Source: Escherichia phage vB_EcoM_3HA11. From it: a DNA stretch of 64,000 bases. Of this stretch, positions 3,462-57,242 are shown piece after piece. The stretch lies in sequence record MN342150; one strand, 5' to 3'. Each line of letters starts with the position of its first letter. The stretch's first letter is position 1. Under the pieces are notes generated by a model. That model was given only the letters and a program-made list of their open reading frames with translations, ran no database searches and was not told where the DNA came from. A program made the position numbers and the translations under genes.

Positions 3462-3508
3462 ACCATAGCCCCTTCGGGGGCTAAATACATCAAAATCCTT
3501 AGGAGATC

Positions 3509-4090: not shown

Positions 4091-4330
4091 ATGAAAGGGT
4101 TCCCGGATTTCCTGAAAGAGGCGAAGGTTGACCATCGCCGCCTTGGACAACAAGGTATGTACGACATCACTGATGTTGGCCGCCCCGAAAAAGGCGAACT
4201 GATCGACTACTATGATCGTAACGGGGACAAACATCAGGGGAAAGTGAAGTCTGTGAACGCACAGAATATCATGACTCTGACAAACACCAGCACTGGTGAA
4301 ACAGTCAAACTGACTCTGATTAAGCCATAA
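4091..4330 (+). CDS. internal head protein-like small protein (N-terminus MKGFPDFLKEAK)
   Basis: SD AAGGAGG; N-terminal 11 residues match the T4 IP capsid-targeting pattern MKTYQEFIAEA. Confidence 0.55.
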   Translation: MKGFPDFLKEAKVDHRRLGQQGMYDITDVGRPEKGELIDYYDRNGDKHQGKVKSVNAQNIMTLTNTSTGETVKLTLIKP

Positions 4331-4360
4331 AAGAAACCCCGCTTCGGCGGGGTTTTTGTT
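4331..4360. terminator. bidirectional rho-independent terminator (ACCCCGC-TTCG-GCGGGGT flanked by A/T runs)
   Basis: Perfect GC stem with UUCG-type loop between convergent genes 4091..4330 (+) and 4359..4964 (-). Confidence 0.6.
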
Positions 4361-4964: not shown

Positions 4965-5051
4965 TTCGTTCTCCAGTTATATTATTCTATATAGTACCTC
5001 ATAGACCCCATTAACACTAAATACTAGACAGTTCAACAATAGGAAACAATC

Positions 5052-8287: not shown

Positions 8288-8356
8288 TCGACACTAAATC
8301 CTCAAGTTCGACTTTCACTTTAAATACCTTCGCATACATTGCGGAGGTATTTTCTT

Positions 8357-9151
8357 ATGGCCATTCTAAAACTTGGCAACCGAGGTTCTGAAGTCAAAGC
8401 GCTTCAACAAAGCCTCAACAAAATCGGTTTCTCCCTTACAGCCGATGGCATATTTGGTAAAGCAACAGAGAATGCTGTCAAATCCGTTCAGGCAGGTGCT
8501 GGATTGGTTATTGATGGTATTGCTGGGCCAAAGACCTTCTATGCTATCCGCAACTCTGGAGACGCTCATCAGGAACATCTGACCGAAGCGGACTTGGTTG
8601 ACGCAGCACGTGAACTTGGTGTTGAGCTGGCCAGTATGAAAGCTGTGAATCAGGTAGAATCCCGTGGCACGGGTTTTACCAAAACCGGCAAGATCAAAAC
8701 TCTGTTTGAGCGCCACATCATGTACAAAAAGGTGACGGCCAAATTCGGACAAGCAAGAGCCAATGCTCTGTACCAACTCTACCCAACATTGGTTAACCCC
8801 AATTCTGGCGGGTATATCGGCGGAGACGCGGAGTTGGAACGCCTTCAGGGTGCAATCGCCCTTGACGAGGACTGCGCTTACGAGAGTGCTTCCTACGGCC
8901 TATTCCAGATCATGGGGTTCAACTGCCAAATCTGTGGATATCCAAATGCCAAAGAGATGTTCACTGATTTCCTGACTGGTGAACGCGCTCATCTTCTGGC
9001 ATTTGTCAAGTTCATCAAGGCTGATGCCAATATGTGGAAAGCCCTGAAGAACAAGAATTGGGCCGAGTTTGCTCGTCGGTACAATGGTCCGGCATATGCG
9101 AAAAACCAGTATGATACTAAACTGGCGGCAGCATACAAGAGTTTCTGTTAA
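8357..9151 (+). CDS. endolysin: peptidoglycan-binding domain plus N-acetylmuramidase-like catalytic domain
   Basis: N-terminal repeat LQQSLNKIGF...DGIFGKATENAV / DGIAGPKTFYAI typical of PG-binding domains; C-terminal ASYGLFQIMGFN muramidase-type block; SD GGAGG before the ATG at 8357. Confidence 0.75.
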   Translation: MAILKLGNRGSEVKALQQSLNKIGFSLTADGIFGKATENAVKSVQAGAGLVIDGIAGPKTFYAIRNSGDAHQEHLTEADLVDAARELGVELASMKAVNQVESRGTGFTKTGKIKTLFERHIMYKKVTAKFGQARANALYQLYPTLVNPNSGGYIGGDAELERLQGAIALDEDCAYESASYGLFQIMGFNCQICGYPNAKEMFTDFLTGERAHLLAFVKFIKADANMWKALKNKNWAEFARRYNGPAYAKNQYDTKLAAAYKSFC

Positions 9152-10096: not shown

Positions 10097-10181
10097 ATAC
10101 CACACGAACTTCCCCGTCGCCTTCAATCCATGGAGGCGACGTATAATAACAGCCTGCATTAACACAAACCAAGGAACCGTT

Positions 10182-14676: not shown

Positions 14677-15015
14677 ATGTACAAATTCCCGATATTCGAA
14701 ACAGTGTACTCTGTTCACAAAAAGGAAGGTCCATTATTTGAAAATTTGGATATTCTGTTAAAGGAAAAAGTCCGTATCCCTCTGGTTCTAAAGGGAAAGC
14801 AAATAGGATATAGCCATGACTGCCAAATAATGCGTTCTGAAGGCACCGACGTCTTACGCATCCGTCTAACATTTGTGTTGACGGGGAGACTAGATGGTGT
14901 GGTGGTTAACCTAAAGCCAACCACCATAGTCCACAGAACGGGTGGGAAAATATTATATCGTTTATTAACTCATTTTGAGTTGGTGACAAAATGCTCTGCC
15001 ACGGACGTTCTTTAA
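14677..15015 (+). CDS. hypothetical protein
   Basis: ORF. Confidence 0.4.
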   Translation: MYKFPIFETVYSVHKKEGPLFENLDILLKEKVRIPLVLKGKQIGYSHDCQIMRSEGTDVLRIRLTFVLTGRLDGVVVNLKPTTIVHRTGGKILYRLLTHFELVTKCSATDVL

Positions 15016-15429
15016 TCAATTTGTCCGTTTCAACCATATCGTGTCTGTTATCGGCTCTGGGTTGTTGACCACATAGAACGTGATGGTTACGCCCAGAGAA
15101 TGATAATCGTCAGACAATGACACATCAACTGATTGTATCTCCGCTCTCGGTTCAAATAAAGCAATCGCGTCTTCAACTTTGTTTTTAACATCAACCTGAA
15201 TTGTGGGATTCGTATTTTCCCCCAGCATGGTATACAGCCCAGCCCCGATACTTGGGTATGTCGGCCAATCCCCAACTGTTGTCATCACGATATTTCGTAC
15301 GGATTGCAACACGGCATAGACACCTGTTTTCTTTGTGACATCTTTGGTGACCGGATGCATGCCAAACTTCAGGTCAATGTCCTTGTACTCTTTCATGTTA
15401 ATCCCCTTTGGATATTGCCTCTCCGGCAC
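15016..15429 (-). CDS. 25: baseplate wedge protein (gp25/GPW family)
   Basis: 137 aa, pattern typical of gp25-like lysozyme-fold baseplate proteins; directly downstream of the gp5-like gene. Confidence 0.6.
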   Translation of the reverse strand: MPERQYPKGINMKEYKDIDLKFGMHPVTKDVTKKTGVYAVLQSVRNIVMTTVGDWPTYPSIGAGLYTMLGENTNPTIQVDVKNKVEDAIALFEPRAEIQSVDVSLSDDYHSLGVTITFYVVNNPEPITDTIWLKRTN

Positions 15430-15460
15430 GAGAGGGCATTATCTACCCTCGCCAGTGTAA

Positions 15461-17086
15461 TCATGCGTCTTTACCACCAAAGTTGCCGCCATTATCCTCC
15501 AGTTCCGGTTTTATATCAATTGGACCAGGACCAGAAGTAGATACTGGAGTTGCCCCAGCGCGTGATGCAGCACGACCAGCACCTTCAGCATATTTGATGT
15601 TGCCTTCAATAGTCTGCGCCACCGACAACTTATCACAAACTATTTCACTAGCCAGTATTTTAGGCACTTTTAAAGTATTGGAAACTTCCAACATCTCACA
15701 GATGATACGCATCACGTTTTGCGCTTGAATTTCGGCCAGCTGTGAAAATTTCATCAACGCCGTGCCAGCAACCACATTGGAGTAGTTCGATGAATGTAGA
15801 TGATAGACCTCACCTGTCTTGCGCTGAACTTCAGTCCCACCAATGGTCAGGTTGTGATCACGACCAACATAGTAACGTTTGTCAAACATCGTCAGATCAT
15901 AATGATCTTTGACTGATTTATTGACCACGTCCCCGTCAGGAAGCATCTGCTTATAAGACCCCGAGGAGTGCATCCAATGGAGACGTTCCCCGCCTGGTGT
16001 GTCATCAACCTCCATAATATGCCCCGACCGAGATGCCATGACATTGTTGTAAGGATAACGAGACCCGCCAGCAGAAGGAACCGACACCTCTCCTGTGTTA
16101 TCAATATCTTGAACACGCCCAGAAGGAGGCGGAGTTTCCTGAACTTTTGGTGTACGATCAGGGATTGGCTCAGACCATTTACCATTTTGTTGCGCAGGAG
16201 CCGCCGATGCTGTCGTAGCAGGACCAGGCCAACGATAACCCAACACAGATGAGCGGCTGAAGCGACTCACCTTCACAGAATCTGATTGGTTGCCTCCAAT
16301 ACACCAAACATAATTGGCATCGAATTTCTGCACGAACGCAACGTGTCCGAATGTTGGGTTGTTGCCACGCCGGAATACAACAACAGCGCCGTAACGGGGT
16401 TCTGACAAAGGGGAACCCCATTGCAAATATGAACGAGCCAAAGCCGAGCGCGTTGAAGTGTATCCTGCTTGGATCAACACCCATCCCACAAATGAAGCGC
16501 ACCAGCTGACTTCATCTTCCGAAGCGCCCAAAGATGTTGTCTTGTGATATTCCAAAATCCTTGGGTTATTATTGAATTTGCCAGAATATTCTTTGACACC
16601 TAATTCACCACGAGCCACTGTCATCCATTTCTCGGGATCATAACCGTCCACAGGCGGTTGAGGTTCTGGTTGTGGGTCGTCTTCAATCTTGACAGGAACA
16701 TTTTCAACGGCGTTATATTTCTGTCTTTCTATAGATTGAACAACCTGGCCCAGCGCCAACGGGTTTGTGTCTGAACCATCCGTTGGTGTCGCCGCTGGCC
16801 AAACCCAGGCGATACGAATATTTTGGTATGCTTCATCCAAAGCAAATCCCATAACATCCGACCCGACTGTAATACCCGTTGGAGACCAGCCTAAACCTGC
16901 CGAGGAGGCGTTAGATGCTGGCATGAGCATTTTACCCCAAGGCAATAATTCGGTAGGTAAGAGAGTGGTATCTTCCGTGTGTACACCATAGATGCGCACA
17001 GCGACGCGCCCGTTCTGGTCGGGATCATTCACGTCTTCAACGCGCCCGTAAAACCAACGCATGTTGTCTAACATATTGAAACCCAT
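15461..17086 (-). CDS. 5: baseplate central hub/spike protein (gp5-like) carrying a CHAP/NlpC-P60-type peptidase domain
   Basis: N-terminus FYGRVEDVNDPDQNGRVAVRIYGVH resembles the gp5/VgrG OB-fold; central Cys...His block (CASFVGWVL ... GHVAFV); C-terminal repetitive beta-rich region. Confidence 0.6.
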   Translation of the reverse strand: MGFNMLDNMRWFYGRVEDVNDPDQNGRVAVRIYGVHTEDTTLLPTELLPWGKMLMPASNASSAGLGWSPTGITVGSDVMGFALDEAYQNIRIAWVWPAATPTDGSDTNPLALGQVVQSIERQKYNAVENVPVKIEDDPQPEPQPPVDGYDPEKWMTVARGELGVKEYSGKFNNNPRILEYHKTTSLGASEDEVSWCASFVGWVLIQAGYTSTRSALARSYLQWGSPLSEPRYGAVVVFRRGNNPTFGHVAFVQKFDANYVWCIGGNQSDSVKVSRFSRSSVLGYRWPGPATTASAAPAQQNGKWSEPIPDRTPKVQETPPPSGRVQDIDNTGEVSVPSAGGSRYPYNNVMASRSGHIMEVDDTPGGERLHWMHSSGSYKQMLPDGDVVNKSVKDHYDLTMFDKRYYVGRDHNLTIGGTEVQRKTGEVYHLHSSNYSNVVAGTALMKFSQLAEIQAQNVMRIICEMLEVSNTLKVPKILASEIVCDKLSVAQTIEGNIKYAEGAGRAASRAGATPVSTSGPGPIDIKPELEDNGGNFGGKDA

Positions 17087-17429
17087 TAGTCAATTAGAAT
17101 CATGGGTTATTTATGGCGGGGATTTGAAATCTGTCGAATAGTAATATTATAGGAAGCTCTGCTTCCGTTCAACTTTATTCTTTTCGTTTCTACTCGCTGA
17201 AGCTCGTAACACCGCCTTGACAGGCAGTCCCATTCCAATGCCATGGAGGCATAAAGGCGAGGAAAATACTGTACACCTCAGAACATGCGTAGAAAAGGAT
17301 TATTTTTGCTTCAAAACAAATTCAAACCCCAATTCACACAACACTTACTTCAGCAACAACGGTGTTATAGCAATTTAAGGTTAAATGTTCCTGTCTTAAC
17401 CTATAAAACAGGTAAGCAAAGAAAACCCC

Positions 17430-17457
17430 ACATTACGTGGGGTTGGAAGATTTCTTG
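17430..17457 (-). terminator. rho-independent terminator on minus strand (CCCCACGTAATGTGGGG plus T run)
   Basis: Hairpin downstream of the 17594..18397 gene. Confidence 0.55.
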
Positions 17458-17593
17458 GACAAACGTATCTTTAGTGTCTCTGTTAGCAAATCAAGATGCC
17501 AAGGCATCGACTCGCTTATTTCAAATATGCTATAGCCATGTGCCTTTAATTCGTCACACATCACAAAGTAGGAGAGTAAATCAATTTCAAAAA

Positions 17594-18397
17594 TTAAATG
17601 AAAATTTCAGTGACACTGTTAAATTTGACTTCATGTTCTTTCCCACACGAAGGACATTTAATTTTCGTCGCGTAACGGATACGAGGAATCTTTTTAAAGA
17701 AATCGTCGGATATATCTTGAACAATCTCAGATTCAATATTTTCCCCCACCCATTTAACAAATTCATCTTTGACACGTTGACGTTCTTTAGCAACATCAGG
17801 TGCTATGCCAGGCTCTGCCGGATTCTCTACTTTCCAAACCTGACCATCATCGTCATACAAACAATCAATAAATGTCGCGATCATTTGCTCCACAGATGAT
17901 GCTTCGTTGAGCACTGAGGCGTCCGAGAAGGACGGTTGACGCATCTTGATGTGATAGCCACCAGGGAGGTCAAATGTTTCCCTGAAGCCTTCTGGGGACA
18001 CGCATTTCACTTGGTTGAGGGGGATCGGTAAAACAAGTTCTTGACCACATTCTTTAAGGCCAGAAACTGGTTCTTCACCTTCATTTGTGTCGGATGGAAC
18101 TTTGTTGTTACATTTGTATCGTATCTTCATGACCTCGCCGATAGATATACAGCGCATCTTTAAAAATACTTCTTCAGTAACACCGATTGGCAGTTTACTA
18201 AAGGGAACCCCAGCGTCAACACAACTATCAAACAGTTGCTCCAGCGTCGCTACACGTTCACTCATAGGAGTGTTCGGATCAGCAACCTGAAGTAGCATGG
18301 TCTGTTGCCCAGCTGTGAAAGCGCGGTATTTAATCACCGTCGGCCAGAAATCACTTTTGTGTGTTCTCTCAGTTTTGGGCAATGATGGTAAATTCAT
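17594..18397 (-). CDS. late-expressed hypothetical protein with C-terminal zinc ribbon (CPSCGKEH); possibly baseplate/assembly
   Basis: Start moved to ATG at 18397 (SD GGAGAT); TATAAATA late-promoter motif about 25 nt upstream on the minus strand. Confidence 0.5.
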   Translation of the reverse strand: MNLPSLPKTERTHKSDFWPTVIKYRAFTAGQQTMLLQVADPNTPMSERVATLEQLFDSCVDAGVPFSKLPIGVTEEVFLKMRCISIGEVMKIRYKCNNKVPSDTNEGEEPVSGLKECGQELVLPIPLNQVKCVSPEGFRETFDLPGGYHIKMRQPSFSDASVLNEASSVEQMIATFIDCLYDDDGQVWKVENPAEPGIAPDVAKERQRVKDEFVKWVGENIESEIVQDISDDFFKKIPRIRYATKIKCPSCGKEHEVKFNSVTEIFI

Positions 18398-18424
18398 AAT
18401 GTATCTCCACGGTATATTGTAACC

Positions 18425-18433
18425 ATATTTATA
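18425..18433 (-). promoter_or_regulatory. T4-type late promoter core TATAAATA (minus strand)
   Basis: Exact TATAAATA on minus strand upstream of the ATG at 18397. Confidence 0.45.
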
Positions 18434-18446
18434 ATGAGGACCGAAA

Positions 18447-18971
18447 ATGCACGCGTTCTGTTTCAGTAAAGTTGGAGAACAACTTACCATTAATTATCCG
18501 GATACAAATACGGATTTCTTTGTATTGCTAACGGATTTCGCAAATAAATTGGGGATCAAGAATATCGCCATGACTGTGGACGATATGAAATTTGGTCGTC
18601 TGGGTGTAAAAGATTTATTGAATTACGGATTCAACGTAATCATCGTCGATCAGACATACAGCCCAATTGACGAGGAAGATGTTATTCCAGTTTGGGTTCA
18701 ACGAGACATAAACACTCTGGATAAGCATTATCCCGATTGTGTCATCATTGGCGAATTAATACCATATTTTCATAAACGTCGTCGGCTTGAATCAATTAAA
18801 AGTTATTTTCAAGATAGCGATGACGGATATAAAATGGATGTCCTTACGAGCGGTTGGGTTGTGAAGAATACCACAGGCAATGCCGACCGAATTACTTCCC
18901 GTCTTTATGAATATGTTAAAGAACGGGATTATGAACTGGAGAACAATAATGCCAAACGTAGAACGCGCTGA
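18447..18971 (+). CDS. hypothetical protein
   Basis: ORF with SD GAGGA. Confidence 0.45.
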   Translation: MHAFCFSKVGEQLTINYPDTNTDFFVLLTDFANKLGIKNIAMTVDDMKFGRLGVKDLLNYGFNVIIVDQTYSPIDEEDVIPVWVQRDINTLDKHYPDCVIIGELIPYFHKRRRLESIKSYFQDSDDGYKMDVLTSGWVVKNTTGNADRITSRLYEYVKERDYELENNNAKRRTR

Positions 18972-19434
18972 TATTCAGCAGGTACAAGACGTCATCCTTC
19001 AACGCCTCCGCGCCGTGATCACAAATGAAAAGGGAGAAATTGCGCCAGGGTTTGAAGGCGCATTCGACGGTTTCGTTGCCGATGATCAGGGGAACCCCGT
19101 TGTACAAACGATCGCTGGCATGATTATGCTGAATAGCGAATTTATGGCTGATGGTAAAATCCATTATTCTCCCAATCTCAGTGTTGACGGAGAATCTTTG
19201 GCTTCCGAAGTGGTTGATTTAACGGTTGCCGTTGGTGAGTTGGGTTATGTTTTGATGGTTTGCACCGCGCATTATGTGGACGCCAACGGCCATGTGTCAT
19301 ATGGTGATGAAGCGCGGGGAATCAAACGTCATGTAGATACTGCGGCGGTTCTGCAGCAGATCCGTCAGATGCAAGACAATATGGATTCCAAACCCCGCCT
19401 GATTTTGCCAGATAGTAAAATCGTGACAAGATAA
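18949..19434 (+). CDS. hypothetical protein
   Basis: ATG at 18949 with SD GGAG; overlaps the upstream gene's end. Confidence 0.45.
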   Translation: MPNVERADIQQVQDVILQRLRAVITNEKGEIAPGFEGAFDGFVADDQGNPVVQTIAGMIMLNSEFMADGKIHYSPNLSVDGESLASEVVDLTVAVGELGYVLMVCTAHYVDANGHVSYGDEARGIKRHVDTAAVLQQIRQMQDNMDSKPRLILPDSKIVTR

Positions 19435-19471
19435 TCCGGTCTAAATACCCATAACACAATGAAACTTCGTT

Positions 19472-20083
19472 ATGGGTATTTTTATGAAATTTTGCGGAAT
19501 CGACTATTCTTATGGCTGTCCTGCCATGTGCTTCTGGGATGATAAAGATCCTTTGGATTTTGACCATCTTCATTTCTATGCGCATCATACTGTAGAAAAA
19601 CATTGTCGTCAGGTACGGCATAACATCCTCATTTTACGCCAGCCGAAATATGAATCCCCAGAAGAACGCTTCTACAATATCTCCAAATGGGCCGAAGCTG
19701 TTCTTCTAACCGAGAAGCCTGATTTCATCACCCTTGAGGGGTACGCAATGGGCAACTCGAAGAATTCCAATAACATATGCCAGACTGCTGAAAATACATC
19801 TTTATTGAAGCAAGCAATGCGCCGGAATAATATGGAATTCCAGATCGTCACTCCTTCTTTCGTTAAAAAGCATTTCTGTGGTAAAGGAAACGCCGATAAA
19901 TTGGTAATGATCGATCATTTCGAGAAGCTGTTCAACGTTAAGATGCGTGGTATAATGGACATGTTGGACGTGAAGGATCCAAAGCCTATCGATGATCTTG
20001 TAGACTCATTCGCAAACATGGTGTCTGGACCTTACTTCATAGAAAATTATCCCGATTTCAATAGAGGTGTAAGAAATGATTAA
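19472..20083 (+). CDS. RuvC-like Holliday junction resolvase (putative)
   Basis: N-terminal CGIDYS, central ITLEGY, and GKGNADK...MIDHFEK blocks resemble RuvC-fold acidic catalytic residues. Confidence 0.5.
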   Translation: MGIFMKFCGIDYSYGCPAMCFWDDKDPLDFDHLHFYAHHTVEKHCRQVRHNILILRQPKYESPEERFYNISKWAEAVLLTEKPDFITLEGYAMGNSKNSNNICQTAENTSLLKQAMRRNNMEFQIVTPSFVKKHFCGKGNADKLVMIDHFEKLFNVKMRGIMDMLDVKDPKPIDDLVDSFANMVSGPYFIENYPDFNRGVRND

Positions 20084-20372
20084 TTACTGGCTGTTGGCAG
20101 ACATACTGCTTTTCGCCTTGCTGTTGATAACGGCATTTATTTGGGTTAAGGGATTTCTGACATTCCTACACTCGTTGAGTGCCATGATATCTTTCTATGC
20201 TGTGTCCCCCCATAGTGACGTCAATGTACGAGCGGCAAATCAATCTGACATGTTGGCTGAATACGTCATGATGCGTGATAAAGCATCCAGGATCGTCCTG
20301 TTTTCTACACTGGCGGGGGCGGTTATTATATTCATACAACACGTCTTGGAGGCAACTCATGCCGTTTTATGA
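20076..20372 (+). CDS. small membrane protein (two predicted TM helices)
   Basis: Hydrophobic segments LLADILLFALLLITAFIWV and AGAVIIFI. Confidence 0.45.
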   Translation: MINYWLLADILLFALLLITAFIWVKGFLTFLHSLSAMISFYAVSPHSDVNVRAANQSDMLAEYVMMRDKASRIVLFSTLAGAVIIFIQHVLEATHAVL

Positions 20373-20604
20373 TTATGCCTGTACAGGTTGTGGTAATTCT
20401 TTCAGTACCAGAAGGTCTTGTGCTGAACGCCATACGCCTGAATTAGATCCATGCGCTGAATGTGGCGGTGAAATCAAAATGGTCATTGGAGCACCAAAGA
20501 TCGTATCTGGTGTCCGTGGCCCACAATCCGCACCTGATGGCTTCAAAGACGTATTGCGTCATATTAAGAAGCAGTCTGGTAAGGGGAATACAATCGATGT
20601 CTGA
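20359..20604 (+). CDS. zinc-ribbon protein (FmdB-like CxxC...CxxC)
   Basis: MPFYDYACTGCG...CAECGG motif; SD GGAGG before the ATG at 20359. Confidence 0.5.
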   Translation: MPFYDYACTGCGNSFSTRRSCAERHTPELDPCAECGGEIKMVIGAPKIVSGVRGPQSAPDGFKDVLRHIKKQSGKGNTIDV

Positions 20605-20839
20605 CCAACAAATAGCACAAGTCCTCACACCTGATTCATTCTCAGAATTGGTGTTGATGCGAGCGAGCCAACGCAAGGAATCAATCCTTGAAACAATGGC
20701 CAGTGTTTGTGAAGAGTATGACATCGAAGAAGCAAAGGTCAAAAAATTGATCACGCCCCCTCTTCTGTCAAGGCTAACAGCTGAATGTTCTGATGCTCGG
20801 TTGTTGAAGGGTGAATTGAAATCTAAAAAACTCATTTAA
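20597..20839 (+). CDS. hypothetical small protein
   Basis: ATG at 20597 overlapping the upstream stop. Confidence 0.4.
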   Translation: MSDQQIAQVLTPDSFSELVLMRASQRKESILETMASVCEEYDIEEAKVKKLITPPLLSRLTAECSDARLLKGELKSKKLI

Positions 20840-20848
20840 GGTTGTAAC

Positions 20849-21088
20849 ATGAGCAAAGAGCAAATTTATAAATTGTTGAAGGCGCAAGAGTATCTGCCAG
20901 GTTCTATCCGCTGGCGTCACGGTAGCCTCAATGAACATGCTGATGATATGGATCGCGTTCGTTTCACAACGCCGGAAGGTAAATCCTATGTCATTGAGTA
21001 CCATACATTCTTGGAAGGTCATAAAACCTTCTCGGATGTGTACGACATTATTGAAATAAACCCAGCAAAACAAATGATTGCAGGTTAA
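20849..21088 (+). CDS. hypothetical small protein
   Basis: ORF. Confidence 0.4.
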   Translation: MSKEQIYKLLKAQEYLPGSIRWRHGSLNEHADDMDRVRFTTPEGKSYVIEYHTFLEGHKTFSDVYDIIEINPAKQMIAG

Positions 21089-21184
21089 CTCAATAGCAAA
21101 ACGCAGTATAATTACACCGTCGGAATAATTGACAAATACATTTACAGAATAGCCCGAAGGGGCGGATTATAGAGGAATATTAAA

Positions 21185-22222
21185 ATGGGTAATTTATTTG
21201 ATCGTCTTAAACAATCTCGTGGCCAACAAGCCGAAGCTATGCAACAGCGACTCGCTCAGCAAGGCCAGCGTGTTGGTGGCGGTCGTGACCCACGCATCTG
21301 GAAGTGGACCTGGAATGAAAAGGGTACTTCCGAAAACATCATTCGTTTCCTGCCGATCCCTTTAGTGGACATGAAGGCTCAAGAAGAAGGCACCATCCCT
21401 GAAGATGCTGTGTTAACTCCGTGTGCCATGATCATGAAACACGCATTCCAGGGTGCTGGTGGTTGGTATATCGAAAACTCACCTCAGACTTTCGGTAACG
21501 ATGATCCGGTTCGTGACCACGATCGTCCTCTGTGGGCACAACAGAAAGAAACGAACGATGAAAAACTGAAGACAGTCTTGAAAAAACGTCTGCCGGACAC
21601 CAAATACTACGCCAATATCCTGGTGATCAAAGATGGCAATAATCCGGAAAATAACGGCAAGGTCTTCTTGCTGGAATTCGGTAATGCCGTCAAGAAAATC
21701 CTGGATTCGGCTCAGAATCCTAAGTTCTCAACCGACCCGAAATTCGACCCGTTCGATATGTGGGAAGGTGCGAATCTGATTCTGAACCTGTTTGGTGAAG
21801 AGAAAGAGTTCGGAAACTGGAAAGGCCTGGTTGCCAACTTCACCAACGTGAAGTGGGATAGTCCGGCACCGCTGGGAACCGACGAATACATTGAAGAGAT
21901 CTGGGAAAAAGAGCACAGCTTGTTTGAGTTCTTTAATCCGGCCAACTTCAAATCGTACGAAGATCTGGAAAAACGTTTGCGCAAAGTTCTGTCCATCCCT
22001 GATAATCAGCCTCTGGTTGAAGGTGGTGCTTCTACTATGGCACATGCGCCTACCCAGTCTCAGGAACCCCAGCGCCCGACAGCGCAGGAAAGTCTGAACC
22101 AACAACAATCTCAGCCTTCTAATGCACAGCAATCTGTTCCAGCCAATAATGGTGGTGCGGGTGCCGATGCGAAACAGACGGCTTCCATTGATGAGTTCGA
22201 GCAGTTCCTGAAGCAAGACTAA
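21185..22222 (+). CDS. 32: single-stranded DNA-binding protein (T4 gp32-like)
   Basis: Blocks NIIRFLP, GGWYIENS and DRPLWAQ match T4 gp32; Gln/Ser/acidic C-terminal tail. Confidence 0.85.
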   Translation: MGNLFDRLKQSRGQQAEAMQQRLAQQGQRVGGGRDPRIWKWTWNEKGTSENIIRFLPIPLVDMKAQEEGTIPEDAVLTPCAMIMKHAFQGAGGWYIENSPQTFGNDDPVRDHDRPLWAQQKETNDEKLKTVLKKRLPDTKYYANILVIKDGNNPENNGKVFLLEFGNAVKKILDSAQNPKFSTDPKFDPFDMWEGANLILNLFGEEKEFGNWKGLVANFTNVKWDSPAPLGTDEYIEEIWEKEHSLFEFFNPANFKSYEDLEKRLRKVLSIPDNQPLVEGGASTMAHAPTQSQEPQRPTAQESLNQQQSQPSNAQQSVPANNGGAGADAKQTASIDEFEQFLKQD

Positions 22223-22225
22223 TTT

Positions 22226-22252
22226 CACTAAAGCCCCTTCGGGGGCTTTTTA
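22226..22252. terminator. bidirectional terminator (AGCCCC-TTCG-GGGGCT plus TTTTT)
   Basis: Hairpin between convergent gp32 gene and the minus gene at 22250. Confidence 0.6.
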
Positions 22253-23194
22253 GTTTTTAACGACGTCCTGTAACAATCCGAGTAAACTACTCTTCTCAGA
22301 CGCCGTCAGGTTATCATTGCCTAATATATCCCTCTGGATGCCGATAGAGATCCTTTCGAAGTCTGCCAGGCTGATACCCGCCAAATTATTTACAAGCTGA
22401 TCGAGTTGCTTGTAGGCCAGTAGGGCTTCACCTGTAAAGTTTCCTTCCTTAATCTTTTTATACAGCTGTCCGGCTTTTGACGCTGCGGTTTCCCAATCTC
22501 CGGAAGCAAGAGCATCAGCAATGCCCAAAGGAAGAAAATCGCTGGCGAGGCTGCGCGTTTCATATTCAGTCTCCGATAATACTTTATTGTAAGAGAACGA
22601 TATATTGTACTGGTTAAATTGGTCGGCGGCACTTTTGTCGAGGTCGATGGAACTGAAGTTAATAGGATGAGCCTCAGTCACATAAACGCGATGAACAACC
22701 TGATCTTCCGTATCCATCTGCTCTATACAAATGTCTGTAACGAAGTCTTCATAATAACCCATCTTGGTTGTGTATGGGTCGAATATCAGGTTCTTCCATT
22801 TGTCCATGACCGACTTTTCATAATAATCGTTGGCGAGGAGGAACGACAACTCCAGATCAACGTTCGTCTTGTTATTTGGCATTTTAATGTGGTTGCCGTT
22901 GTTGGTCATGGGAGTAGTGTCAATCCCTGTACCAGGTAAAGATGCGACCATACACATCATTTGTAAGGAACGAGACGTCTGGTTTGTCCCTCCAAAGAAA
23001 GCGTTTACAATACGGGCGCTTTGTTTGAACAGATCCCCAAATGATGAAGATGAAGGATATGCGTTGCCGTCATTGGATAGAGTCGCATTAGAATCGAAAA
23101 TACCAGGCGGCAACGGGATTGTAACACGAAATCTGTTCTTGCGGGAAATCCCCCGCTGAAGCAATTGCGTTAGAAAATTGCGATAGTCTTCCAC
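22250..23194 (-). CDS. late-expressed hypothetical protein (probable virion/structural); start uncertain
   Basis: ORF runs to 23389 but then overlaps the divergent plus gene; a minus-strand TATAAATA lies at about 23229-23236 and GGAG-N8-GTG gives a start at 23194. Alternative starts 23389, 23350 or 22960. Confidence 0.4.
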   Translation of the reverse strand: MEDYRNFLTQLLQRGISRKNRFRVTIPLPPGIFDSNATLSNDGNAYPSSSSFGDLFKQSARIVNAFFGGTNQTSRSLQMMCMVASLPGTGIDTTPMTNNGNHIKMPNNKTNVDLELSFLLANDYYEKSVMDKWKNLIFDPYTTKMGYYEDFVTDICIEQMDTEDQVVHRVYVTEAHPINFSSIDLDKSAADQFNQYNISFSYNKVLSETEYETRSLASDFLPLGIADALASGDWETAASKAGQLYKKIKEGNFTGEALLAYKQLDQLVNNLAGISLADFERISIGIQRDILGNDNLTASEKSSLLGLLQDVVKN

Positions 23195-23228
23195 GATGAG
23201 GACTCCATTTAAATAATATATCTGCTGA

Positions 23229-23236
23229 TATTTATA
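23229..23236 (-). promoter_or_regulatory. T4-type late promoter core TATAAATA (minus strand)
   Basis: Exact TATAAATA on minus strand in the divergent intergenic region. Confidence 0.4.
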
Positions 23237-23248
23237 AGGAGTTGACAA

Positions 23249-23953
23249 ATGGCCAAGAACGCTATGGGTGAAGAAGACCCGTTGTTGCTTCCTGCCGAGA
23301 TGGACGCCCCAGAATTGGTCAAGCGTTACATCCGCAAATATCGTCAACATTTTGGACCAGAAGCGAAACGTAATATCCGTCGGTCTCACGTGTGGTTTAT
23401 GGAACGCGTATCGAAAGATGCCAATTTATCCCCCAACCACATGATGAAGGCGTTTGCTGAAAATAAACGTCCTGTTCAGGGTGTGCGCTATATTGTTGGT
23501 CGCATGTACTATTTCAAATATGATGCGCTGACCAAAGATGAACTCCCGTATTGGGATATGTATCCTCTTGTATTCTTCTTCAATTTTGTGAAGGGTGACG
23601 GGGTAAAATTTGGGGAACGTGGTGTGACCTATCTTTATGGTCTCAACCTTCATTATTTGCCACCAAAGCTCAGATTATTAGTGTTTGAAGATCTTATCAA
23701 GTTGAGGAACGAAAGAGCGTATCGTTCTAAAACTCGTTTGAGACTTACTTGGGATGCCCTGAAACGGTTCGCCAATCACCCTCTATACAACCATTGTGTG
23801 AAACTGTACCGCGCTGATCAATTTCGTTCACAGCTTTATGAGATTGAGCCTCAATACTGGGAAGTTGTTTTGTTTATGCGCACTGCTCGATTCCAGAAAC
23901 AGAGCCAGATGTCTGTTTGGAAAGACGCTCGTCGTAAACACAAAAATGGTTAG
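23249..23953 (+). CDS. hypothetical protein (late region; possibly head completion or DNA-end associated by position only)
   Basis: SD AAGGAG 8 nt before ATG; divergent from a late-promoter gene, an arrangement seen for T4 genes 4 and 53. Confidence 0.5.
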   Translation: MAKNAMGEEDPLLLPAEMDAPELVKRYIRKYRQHFGPEAKRNIRRSHVWFMERVSKDANLSPNHMMKAFAENKRPVQGVRYIVGRMYYFKYDALTKDELPYWDMYPLVFFFNFVKGDGVKFGERGVTYLYGLNLHYLPPKLRLLVFEDLIKLRNERAYRSKTRLRLTWDALKRFANHPLYNHCVKLYRADQFRSQLYEIEPQYWEVVLFMRTARFQKQSQMSVWKDARRKHKNG

Positions 23954-23954
23954 T

Positions 23955-23995
23955 TCTAAAAGCCGTTCTATGGGATAATTCGCGAACGGCTTTCT
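23955..23995 (+). terminator. terminator-like hairpin (AAAGCCGTTC...GAACGGCTTT)
   Basis: 10-bp inverted repeat followed by T-rich sequence. Confidence 0.45.
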
Positions 23996-24015
23996 ATAAA
24001 CATGAGGTTCCATAT

Positions 24016-24747
24016 ATGTCATATCTACACAGAATTTTTGGTATTGAATTCGGTTCCAACAGCGTTCGTTATGACCGCACTCACAAAGACTCCGGCGGCA
24101 AGACTGGTTACGAACTTGGATCTCGTTTGGGGTATACTGAAGAGCGCCGCCTGAGTGAACAAACTCTTTTCACAGCTATGGGTATTGAATTTGAATCCGA
24201 GGCTGCTTTAGATCTGGGGGATGAGGTTCGTTTTGGTAAGCCTGAAGTCTTAGAATTTGTTGAAGACTTCGTGACAGGTTATACCCATGCCGCTAACAAT
24301 CGTCGCGCCGCCAATGATGCTGTTGGTAAATTTCATTTTGCTGTGAAATACCTTGCCGACAAGCGTATTCAAATGGAAGCCGAATTCAGTGAAGAAAACT
24401 TGAAAGCAGTTTTCGGAGAGACTGGCGATTTCCTATTGACAGAAGAATCCGGCACTTCTTCCGCTCGTCATTTCTTTAGTCAACCGTTTATCGTGAAGGG
24501 ATGTAAAATTCTGATTGATGAAGAACATGTTTTTGGTATTCATCCGGATGTTGTATACGATGAAGAGACGTGTCTGATCATTTCCAGATTGTTTAACAGC
24601 CTGGCGTACACTTCATATTCATTGATCGAACGCTGTATGGAAGAAGAGCATCGCCAAGTTGTTGTCAACAAAATTCGCTTACATGTTGAGCAGAATTTTA
24701 ATGGATTCCATTGCGCGTCTGGTGAGATTCCAAACTTCTACATGTAA
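24016..24747 (+). CDS. hypothetical protein
   Basis: ORF with SD GAGG. Confidence 0.5.
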   Translation: MSYLHRIFGIEFGSNSVRYDRTHKDSGGKTGYELGSRLGYTEERRLSEQTLFTAMGIEFESEAALDLGDEVRFGKPEVLEFVEDFVTGYTHAANNRRAANDAVGKFHFAVKYLADKRIQMEAEFSEENLKAVFGETGDFLLTEESGTSSARHFFSQPFIVKGCKILIDEEHVFGIHPDVVYDEETCLIISRLFNSLAYTSYSLIERCMEEEHRQVVVNKIRLHVEQNFNGFHCASGEIPNFYM

Positions 24748-24764
24748 AGATATCAGGGGGCTGT

Positions 24765-25052
24765 ATGAAGAAATATGTTCGTCTGAACACTGTACTTGAA
24801 TCAGTTATAGAATATTTCATAATGCAGCACCTCAGAGCAGAAAATGATCATGTGAGCGATGCTTTGACTTATGACCACAGGATAGTGGTTCATTCCGTCG
24901 AAATAGTGGATGACGAATTGTTGATTGCCAATGTTGAGCATGCTCTCTGGGATGAAGTGTTAGATCAGTATGTTCAACCGAAGTTCACACAGATCGAGTT
25001 ATCTGCCATGTGGCCACCTGAAACAGTTTTCAATATTGATATACAAAGTTAA
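24765..25052 (+). CDS. hypothetical small protein
   Basis: ORF with SD GGGGG. Confidence 0.4.
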   Translation: MKKYVRLNTVLESVIEYFIMQHLRAENDHVSDALTYDHRIVVHSVEIVDDELLIANVEHALWDEVLDQYVQPKFTQIELSAMWPPETVFNIDIQS

Positions 25053-26257: not shown

Positions 26258-26920
26258 ATGTCTTATTCGCTCAAAGGGCTGTTGAAGCGCCCTGTGCATT
26301 TGTTTGTCAAACCACCTGCTGTAGAAGGGGAATATTCGGCACGAGGAGAGTTGTATTACATTAAAGGCTCCAATGGTAGTGGTAAGTCTACTGTGCCCTC
26401 TTATTTGGCGGAGAATGATCCTCAGGCGTATGTCGTAACCCATAACAGTAAGATCATGCTCACGGTTTGTCCATCTTACAATATTGTCTGTGTCGGTAAA
26501 TATGACAAGTCTAAGTCCAAAGGGGTTGATTCTCTGAAGGATACTGAGCAGATGTTGTTCGCGTTGTCTATTTCTGACCAACCAGAATACCTGAAATATG
26601 ATGTGATTTTCGAAGGCATCATTCCGTCTACATTATTGAGTTCTTGGATCCCCCGCCTGACACGCCCACCACGTGAATTGGTCGTCCTCTTTATGGATAC
26701 CCCTCTTGAAACCTGTATTGCCCGTGTTAAATCGCGTAACGGTGGCGCAGACTTCAATGAAAGTCTGGTGGTCGAGAAGTGGGAGCGCGTTCACAACCAT
26801 CGGGGGCGGCATAAAGAGTTGTTCCCTACCGTGTGTGCGGGTATGATGAAGTCTCACGGTCTAACTGTAGACCAAGCTGTAATGGCGTTCCTCCTCCGTG
26901 ACTTTGGGAGCATTGACTAA
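26258..26920 (+). CDS. P-loop kinase (candidate nucleotide or DNA-base kinase)
   Basis: Walker A GSNGSGKST; first gene of a translationally coupled operon; its stop overlaps the start of the hydroxymethylase gene. Confidence 0.55.
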   Translation: MSYSLKGLLKRPVHLFVKPPAVEGEYSARGELYYIKGSNGSGKSTVPSYLAENDPQAYVVTHNSKIMLTVCPSYNIVCVGKYDKSKSKGVDSLKDTEQMLFALSISDQPEYLKYDVIFEGIIPSTLLSSWIPRLTRPPRELVVLFMDTPLETCIARVKSRNGGADFNESLVVEKWERVHNHRGRHKELFPTVCAGMMKSHGLTVDQAVMAFLLRDFGSID

Positions 26921-27966
26921 TGGAAATTAAAGCTATCAATAACAACGACATGCTGAAACAGGCTGTCTTGGCTATCCGTGAATACGGGATTGAATCTGAT
27001 CCTGGCAACGCGGAGATCAACACTGACGGCACCCGCTTTCTTGATGGTGTGACTATCACCGTCAGTGATATCCGTGACCGCTGGTTATCCGTTGAAGGTC
27101 GCAACTCATCGGCCATCGCAGCTATCGGTGAGACTTTCTGGGTGCTGGCTGGGCGCAATGACCTGAAGTTCCTGTCACGTGTCCTGCCCCGCGCTGCCAA
27201 CTTCTCCGACGATGGCCTAACATGGCGAGCCGCTTATGGGCCGCGCCTGTACGCCCATGGTCAGTTACAGAGCGTCATCAACCGTCTCCGCAAAAACATC
27301 AACACCCGTCAGGCGTATCTCACCATCTATGATCCGTCTCTGGACTCTGATGTTGGTCTGGCCAAGCACAACGGCTCAAACGAAGCGAAGACCAAAGACA
27401 TGGTGTGTAACCTGGCTCTGTTATTTGCTGTCGTTGAAGGTCGTCTGAACCTGACGGTCATCAACCGCTCACAAGATGTCCTGTGGGGTATGAGTTCAAT
27501 CAACTTCATTGAGTTCTCTATCCTTCAGGAAGTGATCGCGCAGGTGCTGGATGTAGACGTCGGCCAGTACAAGCTGTTCTCTAACAATCTTCATTACTAC
27601 AACAATGAAGTCAGCCAGAAGCAGCTGGGTAAGATCACGAAGGACACCAAAGTAGAAGCTGGGTTCATCAACTCCATGATTCACTTCACGAACGTGACCA
27701 ACCAGAACCATATCCGCAATCTGTTCACTGGTGTGCTTCATCACTGTGATATCGGTAGCCCGTGGGAAACTGTGGTCGCCCACCTGAAGGAGTACGATGC
27801 TGATCGCGGCCTGATCGTACAGATGGCATACTGCCTGTACTGCAAGCTGAACGACAAGCTCATCAACATGAACCTGATTCAGGATCATGGCCTGAACATT
27901 GCACTCACTCACTCTCCGGTTGACCGCAAGATCGTTGATCCAAAGTTCCTGGAAGGTGCGTTATGA
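26920..27966 (+). CDS. thymidylate synthase-family pyrimidine hydroxymethylase (gp42-like; base specificity uncertain)
   Basis: Blocks GETFWVLAGRND, DMVCNLA (catalytic Cys without the P-C-H of true TS, as in T4 dCMP hydroxymethylase DFMCTNT), NRSQDVLWG and GQYKLFSNNLHYY; 348 aa. Confidence 0.65.
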   Translation: MEIKAINNNDMLKQAVLAIREYGIESDPGNAEINTDGTRFLDGVTITVSDIRDRWLSVEGRNSSAIAAIGETFWVLAGRNDLKFLSRVLPRAANFSDDGLTWRAAYGPRLYAHGQLQSVINRLRKNINTRQAYLTIYDPSLDSDVGLAKHNGSNEAKTKDMVCNLALLFAVVEGRLNLTVINRSQDVLWGMSSINFIEFSILQEVIAQVLDVDVGQYKLFSNNLHYYNNEVSQKQLGKITKDTKVEAGFINSMIHFTNVTNQNHIRNLFTGVLHHCDIGSPWETVVAHLKEYDADRGLIVQMAYCLYCKLNDKLINMNLIQDHGLNIALTHSPVDRKIVDPKFLEGAL

Positions 27967-28532
27967 TGTATCCAAACCTTGAATTCTTTACGGGGCGTAA
28001 GCGCTCCGGCAAGGACTTCTGTTTGGAGTCCCTGATCAGCTACCACCATCTACAGGGAGACAAGGACATTCAACGCCTGTCTTTCTCGGATGAGCTGCGC
28101 CGTGTTGCCAACTACATCTACCCGTGGCTGCCTGAGGAGGTGGAGGATGCTGTGAAGGACGTTTCATTCATACACCCCGATAACCCCAAGGGCTTAACTC
28201 CACGGCAGATCTGGCTTCATCTCGGCAGCGATACGGGCTTGCGTTACGTACAGCCTGATCTGTTCCTGGCGTTCTTCAAGCGCTTCCAGCTTCCTCTGGT
28301 AGAGCAGAACCCTCACGTCCATTATATCGTGAGCGACCTGCGCACCCCCCAGGAATATGAATGGGCGCTGAGTACGAAATGTCCTATCACCCGCATTTCA
28401 AAGGCCGACCGCGCTGGTATCATAGAGGACGATATAGAGGCTTTCATTGATAAGATGGAAGTTGATTATGAATTTGTCAATCCGTTTGAAGGTTGGCAAC
28501 CGTTCGTCAAATTTTATAGGGATCGGAAATGA
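27963..28532 (+). CDS. 1: deoxynucleoside monophosphate kinase (T4 gp1-like)
   Basis: P-loop GRKRSGKDF matches the T4 gp1 GVKRSGKDT pattern; ATGA overlap with the upstream gene. Confidence 0.65.
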   Translation: MMYPNLEFFTGRKRSGKDFCLESLISYHHLQGDKDIQRLSFSDELRRVANYIYPWLPEEVEDAVKDVSFIHPDNPKGLTPRQIWLHLGSDTGLRYVQPDLFLAFFKRFQLPLVEQNPHVHYIVSDLRTPQEYEWALSTKCPITRISKADRAGIIEDDIEAFIDKMEVDYEFVNPFEGWQPFVKFYRDRK

Positions 28533-29077
28533 TCACAACAGAGCATATTAAAAGTCTGCTCGAACTTCAAAAGGCCACCAACGTGGCCTATTTTGGGGAA
28601 GAGTGGAAGAATGTATGGAGTCAGAACGCGATCATCAACTCCATCTATCGCGAGTGGGCGGAGTTCCTTGACGAAACCACCCGCGACTGGAAGGTCTATG
28701 GTAACGACATCGGGTTTCACCATGCGAACGCAGTCTATGAACTGGTGGACGTGGTTCACTTCATGCTGTGTTTCATCCTCGTCGATCGCACCAAAGGAGA
28801 GATTGAAGAAGAAATGGAGAATCTTGGCCGACGGCTCGTCCCAGGGACGAGTTCAGTAGGGCATCGCAATGTTACGTATCGCCTTGGGCAGTTCATGAAC
28901 GATCCTTGCGTCGAGACTCTCATGGTCTTCCTATCGACTGTGTGTTCTTACATGGAGATCGACATTGAGACCTACATGCTGGCACACAAGCGCAAAAACG
29001 ATCGCAATCGGCTGCGTGCTGCTGGCGGCGCGAATTACGATAAGTCCGCAGAAACCCCTCTGACCCTGGAGTTCTAA
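28529..29077 (+). CDS. 56: dCTPase/dUTPase-type all-alpha NTP pyrophosphatase (T4 gp56-like)
   Basis: ELVDVVHFMLCFIL block matches T4 gp56 ELVDIFHFVLNMFV; 182 aa. Confidence 0.65.
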   Translation: MITTEHIKSLLELQKATNVAYFGEEWKNVWSQNAIINSIYREWAEFLDETTRDWKVYGNDIGFHHANAVYELVDVVHFMLCFILVDRTKGEIEEEMENLGRRLVPGTSSVGHRNVTYRLGQFMNDPCVETLMVFLSTVCSYMEIDIETYMLAHKRKNDRNRLRAAGGANYDKSAETPLTLEF

Positions 29078-29607
29078 TGTTTACAGTTGTCGTATCATAT
29101 TATGCGGAACATGCCCCGCAAATGGCAGAGAACTTTGCTGAGTTTATTAAACCTGGCAGACATGTCGTTATCGCGACCAAATTCAACAAAGAACCAGATG
29201 GTGCGGCTACTGTAACGCAACATATTACAACTCCAGAGCCGGAAACCCTTTTCAAACGTATTGAAGATTTTGCTTTTGGCGGGGAAGAAATTCCAGAGTC
29301 ATTACAGCATATCTATTTTGAAGATGCGATATATTATGTTCATGCTATTCCAAAGGATGTTACAACTGAACAAATGATGTATATCCTGAATATCGCATTG
29401 AATGTTTCTTGTGTCAACAGGGCACAGCACAATCGTCTGCGTAATATGTATTTAACAGAACGCGGGGGTTCCGAAATTAACGATGAAAAACTCCCGTCAA
29501 TAATGGCGATTCACGAAGCAATCAATATATTGTCCAAGAAAGTCTTGGGCACCGATTTATTAATTACGATCAACAAGCAAGAGGAAACGAAATGGCCGAT
29601 TCATTGA
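29077..29607 (+). CDS. hypothetical protein (176 aa) within the nucleotide-modification operon
   Basis: ORF coupled to dCTPase (TAATG overlap) and overlapping the uvsX start. Confidence 0.45.
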   Translation: MFTVVVSYYAEHAPQMAENFAEFIKPGRHVVIATKFNKEPDGAATVTQHITTPEPETLFKRIEDFAFGGEEIPESLQHIYFEDAIYYVHAIPKDVTTEQMMYILNIALNVSCVNRAQHNRLRNMYLTERGGSEINDEKLPSIMAIHEAINILSKKVLGTDLLITINKQEETKWPIH

Positions 29608-44021: not shown

Positions 44022-44074
44022 GGTCTGAAGCCCTTTAATTAGAATAGAGTGATGACACTATTTAGGACTAGAAT

Positions 44075-57182: not shown

Positions 57183-57242
57183 TGTTGTAGCCTCGAATTT
57201 ACGTTCCGCTCATGGGGAACATAAAAATTATACCCTTAGACA

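Follow-up and report, generated by a model that had tools for sequence, protein, structure and literature searches.

The DNA analysed here, referred to below as the window, is a stretch of 64,000 nucleotides from Escherichia phage vB_EcoM_3HA11 (sequence record MN342150). Its bases 15000-25000 are 98.7-99.2% identical to those of Vi01-like phages of Salmonella and E. coli (Kuttervirus, Ackermannviridae), and Salmonella phage Vi01 itself is 98.7% identical to the window over the compared region. Mapping of the Vi01 proteins onto the window places it at approximately 1.1-65.1 kb of the Vi01 genome, in reverse complement. Judged by this sequence relationship, the window belongs to a ViI-like phage of the genus Kuttervirus, family Ackermannviridae.

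Two baseplate genes, gp26 and gp54, are each a lone leftward virion gene within a long rightward block of DNA-metabolism genes (Table 1). The gp26-like product matches the Pfam family PF12322 (T4_baseplate, E = 1.5e-51) and is 100% identical to its Vi01 counterpart; searched against Pfam, the gp54-like product returned a weak gp19 match that lies below the curated cut-off. A first-pass annotation of the window had claimed that exact TATAAATA cores lie on the minus strand in two short divergent spacers. Both are present: the window contains two exact copies of this octamer, both on the minus strand, at 18426-18433 (one base off the 18425-18433 originally given) and at 23229-23236, the former in the spacer between gp26 and gene 074 (18398-18446, 49 bp) and the latter in the spacer between gp54 and gp2 (23195-23248, 54 bp).

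Table 1. Genes, predicted promoter boxes and hairpins discussed in the text, in window coordinates.
Feature	Position	Strand	Remarks
CTAAATAC, predicted late promoter of gene 093	3481-3488	+	20 nt upstream of 3509
CTAAATAC, predicted late promoter of gene 092	5017-5024	+	27 nt upstream of 5052
TTAAATA box 8320-8326 in 5' arm of hairpin	8322-8334 paired with 8340-8352	+	
ATAAATA box, gp5 (baseplate hub and tail lysozyme)	17108-17114	-	21 nt upstream of ATG 17086
Terminator-like hairpin and T-run downstream of gp26	17424-17444	-	scored as minus-strand terminator
gp26-like baseplate hub gene	17594-18397	-	only leftward gene at its junction; Vi01_075 annotation
TTCATA-N14-TATATT	18393-18418	+	28 nt upstream of ATG 18447 of gene 074
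TATAAATA box, predicted late promoter of gp26	18426-18433	-	ends 28 nt upstream of ATG 18397
Shine-Dalgarno GAGGA 18436-18440 and ATG 18447 of gene 074	18436-18449	+	
CTAAATAC box, RuvC-like resolvase gene	19441-19448	+	within hairpin arm
13-bp hairpin, RuvC-like resolvase leader	19443-19455 paired with 19469-19481	+	CTAAATAC box in 5' arm
gp33-like late-transcription co-activator gene	20597-20839	+	Pfam PF16805, E = 4.6e-19
GC-rich hairpin between convergent gp32 and gp54	22230-22249		scored as terminator on plus strand only
gp54-like baseplate tail-tube gene (tail-tube initiator)	22250-23194	-	lone leftward; annotation of Vi01_066 and its orthologs
TTTAAATA box, predicted late promoter of gp2 (DNA end protector)	23208-23215	+	ends 33 nt upstream of ATG 23249
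TATAAATA box, predicted late promoter of gp54	23229-23236	-	ends 34 nt upstream of GTG 23194
Shine-Dalgarno AAGGAG 23236-23241 and ATG 23249 of gp2	23236-23251	+	
Palindromic TAATTA	44036-44041		promoter position for gp4
Divergent spacer between gp48 and gp4	44036-44065		CTAAATA 44059-44065 (-), predicted to serve gp48; AGGA of gp4 at 44064-44067
TTAAATA box, gene 005 (Ig-domain structural gene 006 next)	58710-58716	-	33 nt upstream

The two spacers differ in what faces the octamer. In the gp26 spacer, the element TTCATA-N14-TATATT is probably a pre-late promoter for gene 074 and the genes that follow it. It belongs to the Ackermannviridae motif class TTCAAT-N14-TATAAT, of which 5/5 exact copies and 7/11 relaxed matches in Vi01 lie 28-44 nt upstream of gene starts, and its N14 spacing and TATAYT are kept across genera. 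In the gp54 spacer, TTTAAATA and the gp54 box face each other across a gap of 13 nt. The resulting inverted repeat (TAAATA-N13-TATTTA) was considered as the site of a dimeric regulator and set aside, since the repeat is missing from the gp26 spacer and there is no evident candidate for a protein that would bind it. Downstream, the hairpin at 17444-17424 appears to close a compact gp26 late transcription unit, and the hairpin between gp32 and gp54 likely terminates both of these genes.

The gene order itself calls for promoters at these places. Upstream of gp54, leftward genes resume at a distance of 16 kb; for gp26, the nearest is gp54 itself, 3.9 kb away, and gp54 is followed by a hairpin that the scan called a terminator for the plus strand alone. 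As neither gene has a co-oriented neighbor immediately upstream, gp26 and gp54 each need a promoter in or near their own spacer. The same need was raised in the paper on phage CBA120, in which the promoters were said to be unidentified, as was the late recognition sequence of ViI-like phages. A consensus scan predicted no sigma-70-type promoter in either spacer, and the DNA upstream of both boxes consists of the neighbor's Shine-Dalgarno sequence and coding region, which vary between genera and contain no -35 element. A sigma-70 -10 candidate on the plus strand of the gp26 spacer, TATAAT at 18430-18435, was rejected as unconserved: it reads TATAAT, TATAAC, TATAGT, TATACA or TATACG among the phages compared, with loss of the key last T.

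The raw number of octamers carries no signal. Two copies of TATAAATA were found in the window against 1.88 expected, and 54/100 shuffles had at least two; the related octamer CTAAATAC was likewise in no significant excess (3 against 1.08 expected, with at least three copies in 9/100 shuffles). As 8-mer counts against shuffles are uninformative in 64 kb, they were replaced by a position test with control hexamers of the same composition. A motif was scored as being in promoter position when it ended 15-55 nt upstream of a same-strand start codon, which a random site in the window would do with a chance of approximately 3%; the controls were the 14 other permutations of the hexamer TAAATA, pooled, and the test covered the whole annotated Vi01 genome. 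The two TATAAATA boxes end 28 nt (gp26) and 34 nt (gp54) upstream of same-strand start codons, so that their placement, unlike their raw count, is significant.

The genome-wide count relative to gene starts that the first-pass annotation had proposed was made on Vi01, where TAAATA is in promoter position at 29/58 sites (50%), against 104 of the 1659 control sites (6.3%; binomial P = 6e-20). All four exact copies of TATAAATA in Vi01 are in promoter position and precede gp54, gp26, gene 143 and gene 200. The sites in promoter position lie 21-49 nt upstream of the start genome-wide, and 15/29 precede genes annotated as structural; among the Vi01 genes behind the motif are gp22, gp18, gp14, gp6, gp5, gp48, gp2 and three of the four tailspike-region genes. 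The window gives the same picture, 11/18 TAAATA cores being so placed, as opposed to 7% of the control permutations. The core is also depleted approximately two-fold in the window (18 copies against 34.3 ± 6.4 expected), just seven copies falling outside promoter position, as would be expected if selection acts against stray late promoters.

The base that precedes the core is not free, and its distribution bears on a further claim. The first-pass annotation had pointed to a related motif before the genes at 3509, 5052 and 19472; this is CTAAATAC, present at 3481, 5017 and 19441, 20-27 nt upstream of the ATGs. It had also suggested that this motif may be a late-promoter variant, which is supported but understated, since CTAAATA is the majority form in Vi01, with 16/23 copies in promoter position. 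ATAAATA follows with 8/17 and TTAAATA with 4/9, and a single one of the nine GTAAATA sites is so placed. Expressed over the 29 promoter-position sites, the base before TAAATA is C at 16, A at 8 and T at 4, and the base two before it is essentially free. Among all single-base changes to the core, an excess in promoter position is seen at core position 4 alone, with TAAGTA (4/14) and TAATTA (6/32), which precede gp23, gp19, gp20 and gp4. CTAAATA is thus the dominant late-promoter form in the Ackermannviridae and not a minor variant, and the predicted family consensus is (C>A>T)TAA(A/t/g)TA. An exact core is absent at some late genes, gp23 having CTAAGTA and gp3 and gp25 having none, so the model needs either tolerated variants or read-through from an upstream gene.

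Conservation was followed in nine phages by aligning both spacers with the orthologous region of eight other phages: CBA120; IME250 and Trex_ER12 (Taipeivirus-like); fGh-Ecl02 and P46FS4 (Agtrevirus-like); RC-2014 (Limestonevirus); 3M (Miltonvirus); and Bue1 (Nezavisimistyvirus). The set spans at least six genera (Kuttervirus, Taipeivirus, Agtrevirus, Limestonevirus, Miltonvirus and Nezavisimistyvirus). The octamer of the gp26 spacer is exactly TATAAATA in 7/9 phages and TATAATTA in the two Agtrevirus-like phages; that of the gp54 spacer is exactly TATAAATA in 8/9 and TATAAGTA in RC-2014. These are the sole substitutions, and both alter core position 4, the position that tolerates variants in Vi01. 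The 4-6 bases downstream of the octamers vary between genera, so that the conservation is specific to the octamers themselves. The TTAAATA core of the gp2 box is invariant in 9/9 phages, and the gp2 box keeps a distance of 13 nt from the gp54 box in eight of them and of 14 nt in the ninth, although the sequence in between diverges. Some of the octamer conservation may stem from the opposite strand, on which the same bases form an A/U-rich stretch just 5' of the neighbor's Shine-Dalgarno sequence.

The phage group also possesses the factors that a T4-type late promoter would require. Besides the gp33-like co-activator gene of the window, Vi01 carries, outside the window, a gp55 homolog (phrog_234 in PHROGs, E = 1e-53) and an annotated gp45 sliding clamp. 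The gp55 homolog had no match in Pfam or among PDB sequences; it is diverged and, at 256 aa, longer than that of T4. The late-promoter identity proposed in the first-pass annotation is in agreement with the strand of the boxes, their distance to the start codons, their baseplate targets, their conservation and the factor genes. Both TATAAATA boxes are therefore, with good probability, T4-type late promoters of the gp55 type that would serve the baseplate genes gp26 and gp54. From the directly observed sequence, position and conservation of the boxes, and from the factor genes, we infer that late transcripts would be initiated at them.

The proximity of the boxes to Shine-Dalgarno sequences of opposite-strand genes had been described as an overlap. 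This holds at 23229-23236, which abuts AAGGAG and has one base in common with it; at 18426-18433 the box lies 2 nt before GAGGA and is adjacent to it, without overlap. The further proposal, that the overlap would tie together the expression of the two divergent genes, does not find support in that form. The proximity is explained by geometry, as a box needs 21-49 nt to its own start and the spacers measure just 49-54 bp, and gp2 has its own facing box. The spacer between gp48 and gp4 repeats the pattern, with a CTAAATA box that overlaps the AGGA Shine-Dalgarno sequence of gp4. The shared timing of gp54 and gp2 would come from a common promoter class and not from the overlap of a box.

The same proximity gives some ground for placing the role of the boxes on the plus strand, where TATTTATA could act as an A/U-rich enhancer of translation, as a repressor site (e.g., for RegA) or as a sigma-70 -10 box, gp26 and gp54 being transcribed by other means. 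Each box lies right beside a Shine-Dalgarno sequence, that of gp2 or that of gene 074, the plus strand of the window reads TTTATAAT at 18428-18435, and a RegA homolog is annotated in Vi01. However, the same core, equally oriented and equally spaced, occurs before approximately 27 other genes that have no divergent neighbor, a -10 box so placed would start an RNA a few nucleotides before the ATG, downstream of the Shine-Dalgarno sequence, and gp26 and gp54 would be left promoterless. A purely plus-strand role is for these reasons improbable. Promoter and plus-strand roles are compatible with each other, as the RNA copy of the box could also aid the translation of the neighbor.

Two other boxes of the window lie in strong hairpins. 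At 19441, just 2 nt separate the 3' arm from the conserved start codon of the RuvC-like resolvase gene (ATG 19484); the leader folds with -15.3 kcal/mol (z = -5.1), a value that shrinks to -2.8 kcal/mol if the RNA begins at the predicted late start 19453. This hairpin is kept in 9/9 phages, with compensatory changes at 3/12 pairs. At 8320, the 3' arm carries the GGAGG (8343-8347) of gene 086, which starts at 8357 and codes for a peptidoglycan-binding or endolysin-like product; its fold (-18.0 kcal/mol, z = -6.4) is lost on truncation at 8332. In Vi01, the same design is found before three tailspike-region genes and before genes 142, 183 and 200. T-runs follow the stems at 19441 and 8320, and a terminator role is also possible for them. 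The design is absent from the TATAAATA boxes, the leaders of which fold like shuffles (z = -0.5 and +0.7). In comparisons with shuffled sequences, no significant RNA structure was found in the leader of the gp26 box, nor in those of the gp54 and gp2 boxes; hairpin gating of the TATAAATA boxes and of the gp2 box was discarded on this ground. The lack of a hairpin at the TATAAATA boxes fits divergent junctions, where no sense read-through arrives.

These hairpins raise the question of whether the enrichment of TAAATA reflects nothing other than the A-tract of terminators (AAATA-stem-loop-stem-TATTT), in which case the published motif CTAAATAcCcc would be half a terminator. At approximately one third of the Vi01 sites, the core is indeed paired within a strong hairpin, with a T-run leading up to the next start codon (the leaders of RuvC, 086, 142, 183 and 200, and those of three tailspike-region genes), and the window contributes the cases at 8320 and 19441. 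Against this, most sites lack a hairpin, among them both TATAAATA boxes and the sites of gp22, gp18, gene 169, gp5, gp48 and gp2; the motif is strand-specific relative to the downstream gene; and the hairpins have long loops, with 8-15 nt in those of the RuvC leaders. The hairpin is better seen as an addition to a promoter, a design shared by the T4 genes e, soc, 49 and I-TevI (PMC3014915), and there is little likelihood that terminators account for the motif. The "cCcc" tail of CTAAATAcCcc is probably hairpin stem and not part of promoter recognition.

That the boxes are functionless chance octamers, as a window count of 2 equal to the shuffle expectation of 1.88 and the general A/T-richness of intergenic DNA would allow, is most improbable and already close to refuted by the position test and by conservation, considering that promoter position is occupied by 50-61% of TAAATA copies against 6-7% for hexamers of the same composition, that 4/4 exact octamers of Vi01 are so placed, that the octamers are kept over at least six genera while the adjoining bases vary, and that TAAATA is depleted elsewhere.

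Taken as T4-type late promoters, the boxes would function as follows. In the late phase, the core of the host RNA polymerase would take up the gp55-like sigma factor and, aided by the gp33-like co-activator and the gp45 clamp, would read TAAATA with C, A or T in front of it and without a -35 element, and start approximately 6 nt downstream. From the box at 18426-18433, transcription would proceed leftward through gp26 and end at the hairpin 17444-17424; from that at 23229-23236, it would proceed leftward through gp54 and end at the hairpin 22249-22230. The same signal, mostly as CTAAATA, is present before the other late units of the window and would drive them: gp5, gp48-gp53 and the tail genes, gp2, 005-006, 092, 093, the endolysin-like 086 and the RuvC-like resolvase gene. 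By T4 geometry, from which we infer the exact start positions, the late start of gp26 would lie at approximately 18420, that of gp2 at approximately 23221 (rightward) and that of gp54 at approximately 23223 (leftward). The promoter of gene 074 would start at approximately 18425 and thereby cross the late start of gp26. In these 49-54 bp spacers, the predicted starts of face-to-face promoters would cross by 3-7 nt, and on one DNA molecule a polymerase at one promoter would be expected to occlude the opposite one.

Facing boxes with crossing predicted starts imply that coupling, if there is any, would consist of mutual exclusion on one template and not of joint activation. The partner in the gp26 spacer differs from that in the gp54 spacer and looks like another promoter class (TTCATA-N14-TATATT). 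It is possible, although on balance doubtful, that the compact divergent spacers are conserved promoter-exclusion modules, a reading that includes gp54/gp2 exclusion, a gp26/074 switch and a distinct octamer subclass. If it were true, gp54 and gp2 would be initiated one gene per template at a time, and the pair could set the ratio of baseplate to head protein. In the 49-bp spacer between gp26 and 074, where the pre-late and late promoters overlap, the passage from early to late transcription would exchange one transcribed strand for the other, and could feed back on the supply of gp33, the gene of which lies within the 074 operon. The T at -13 and the A at -12 are kept at both TATAAATA sites, and position -12 of the RuvC site drifts between C, G and A; the conserved full octamer could, if this reading holds, mark a functionally distinct subclass of late promoters.

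Late promoters have been predicted before in this group of phages, and the present finding, while correct, is in essence a prediction already on record: for phage AG3, the ortholog of the 23229 box was published in 2011. According to the AG3 paper, a search for TATAAATA with one mismatch yielded three putative late promoters (PMC3121705). The entry "tctttgccatttgtcaactcctataaata" in Table S2B is the ortholog of window 23229-23236, minus strand, and was named Porf072 and placed upstream of gp2 (PMC3121705). This entry contains the reverse complement of the gp2 start ("gccat"), so that the box is directed to gp54 and away from gp2, and the target gene of the published putative promoter Porf072 is corrected accordingly. 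The ortholog of the gp5 box (window 17108-17114) is listed for AG3 as Porf084, and the gp26 box is not one of the three late promoters given in the text and in the table excerpt (PMC3121705). The LIMEstone paper reported 33 late promoters, by similarity to T4, and CTAAATAcCcc and TTCAAT[N14]TATAAT have been cited as motifs of ViI-like phages (PMC7283392). The three CTAAATAC sites and the site at 18393-18418 fall in these two published motif classes. Both motifs reportedly stem from the 2012 proposal of the genus "Viunalikevirus." The three CTAAATAC sites fit the CTAAATA heptamer, with a CCC continuation at 19441 only; both TATAAATA boxes are followed by T and are not CTAAATAcCcc, though the TAAATA core is common to both.

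The value of the result is mainly one of annotation. Promoters of Ackermannviridae are not annotated; a literature search found no transcriptome or start-site map for any phage of the family, and a family review of 2024 does not mention promoters or transcription. Members of Kuttervirus and of the Ackermannviridae in general, among them phages of Salmonella, E. coli O157, Klebsiella and Dickeya, are widely used in biocontrol, detection and engineering. A rule by which C, A or T followed by TAA(A/t/g)TA lies 21-49 nt before a start covers nearly all late units in the window and could guide reporter insertion and genome reduction. The biology is as expected for a T4-related phage and holds no surprise for the specialist.

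Among known systems, the hairpin-embedded boxes have their closest parallel in the T4 genes e, soc, 49 and I-TevI, in which early read-through RNA hides the ribosome-binding site and late RNA starts inside the hairpin and is translated (PMC3014915). The leaders at 19441 and 8320 resemble these genes in having the box in the 5' arm, the 3' arm over the Shine-Dalgarno region and co-oriented genes upstream, and RNA starting 6 nt after the box is predicted to lose the structure. The types of gene are also parallel, as T4 gene 49 likewise codes for a Holliday-junction resolvase and T4 gene e for a lysozyme; the genes are, however, non-homologous (a RuvC fold against endonuclease VII), and the T-runs after the hairpins of the phage studied here could terminate transcription. 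The T4 late promoter itself, TATAAATA, spans -13 to -6, and its T at -13 is poorly conserved in other T4-like phages (PMC1524935). Both sites described here share with T4 the identical octamer, the lack of a -35 element, a place upstream of virion genes and homologs of gp33, gp55 and gp45; unlike in T4, the exact octamer is a minority form in the ViI-like family (four sites in Vi01), in which C is preferred before TAAATA. The late promoters of Aeromonas phage Aeh1 read CTAAATA from -12 (Nolan et al., 2006; PMC1524935). The heptamer with its C at -12 and its location before T4 late-gene orthologs are common to both systems, and the gp55 of Aeh1 is also diverged; Aeh1 is, however, a member of another family of T4-like phages, and C, A and T forms coexist in the phages considered here.

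Two leaders in the window combine a predicted late-promoter box and the ribosome-binding region in the opposite arms of one hairpin. At the gene for a RuvC-like resolvase, the predicted T4-type late box CTAAATAC occupies the 5′ arm, the opposite arm lies right next to the start codon, and the folding energy in the window is -15.3 kcal/mol (z = -5.1). Comparison of the window with the orthologous regions of eight relatives revealed that this hairpin is conserved, with compensatory changes between genera. A run of T residues 3′ of the stem means that a terminator role is also allowed. The leader of gene 086, which codes for a peptidoglycan-binding or endolysin-like protein, is of the same design and folds at -18.0 kcal/mol (z = -6.4) in the window sequence, and this hairpin is lost from an RNA beginning at 8332.

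The start of the RuvC-like gene used in Vi01, ATGGGT at 19472, lies within the hairpin stem. The ATGAAAT at 19484 is kept in 9/9 phages, and the annotations of CBA120, P46FS4, 3M and Bue1 begin the gene there, which makes 19484 rather than 19472 the probable true start.

Coordinates of the features discussed (window positions unless Vi01 is stated)
Feature	Position	Strand	Basis
CTAAATAC box in 5′ arm of 13-bp hairpin	19441-19486	+	sequence and RNA folding
TTAAATA box in hairpin 5′ arm, GGAGG Shine-Dalgarno in 3′ arm	8320-8357	+	RNA folding
TTCAAT-N14-TATAAT class	10122-10147, 18393-18418, 57227-57252		
TTCAAT-N14-TATAAT class, Vi01	26244, 29980, 133994, 148125		
ORF in segment without Vi01 counterpart	4091-4330	+	
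ORF (201 aa) in segment without Vi01 counterpart	4359-4964	-	
Terminator-like hairpin, gp26-gp5 gap	17444-17424	-	

Among published putative late promoters, Porf072 of the ViI-like phage AG3 was assigned to gp2 (PMC3121705, Table S2B). It is the ortholog of window 23229-23236, and its sequence reads along the reverse strand where gp2 starts; it therefore points to the gp54 homolog, and its target gene appears to have been mis-assigned in the AG3 listing.

Compared with Vi01, the window carries an additional segment (4091-4964, ~0.9 kb) that separates gene 093 from gene 092 and may be an inserted mobile gene, e.g., a homing endonuclease. When Vi01 proteins were mapped onto the window, the thyA, dUTPase and uvsX homologs (26920-30677) reached just 62-75% identity whereas the flanking genes exceeded 93%, which suggests a mosaic or recombinant segment of the nucleotide-metabolism cluster. 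The ~500 bp between gp26 and gp5 (17087-17593) contain no annotated gene in Vi01; relatives have small ORFs annotated there.

A further motif class, TTCAAT-N14-TATAAT, sits 28-44 nt upstream of non-structural genes in the window and Vi01. A standard sigma-70 -35/-10 pair needs a longer spacer than these 14 nt, so the upstream hexamer may be an activator box instead of a -35 element. Such a box would be the counterpart of the T4 MotA box; no MotA or AsiA homologs have been reported for the ViI-like family (CBA120 paper). The RuvC-leader hairpin matches a T4 arrangement, that of gene 49 and gene e, in which the hairpin sequestering the ribosome-binding site contains a late promoter.
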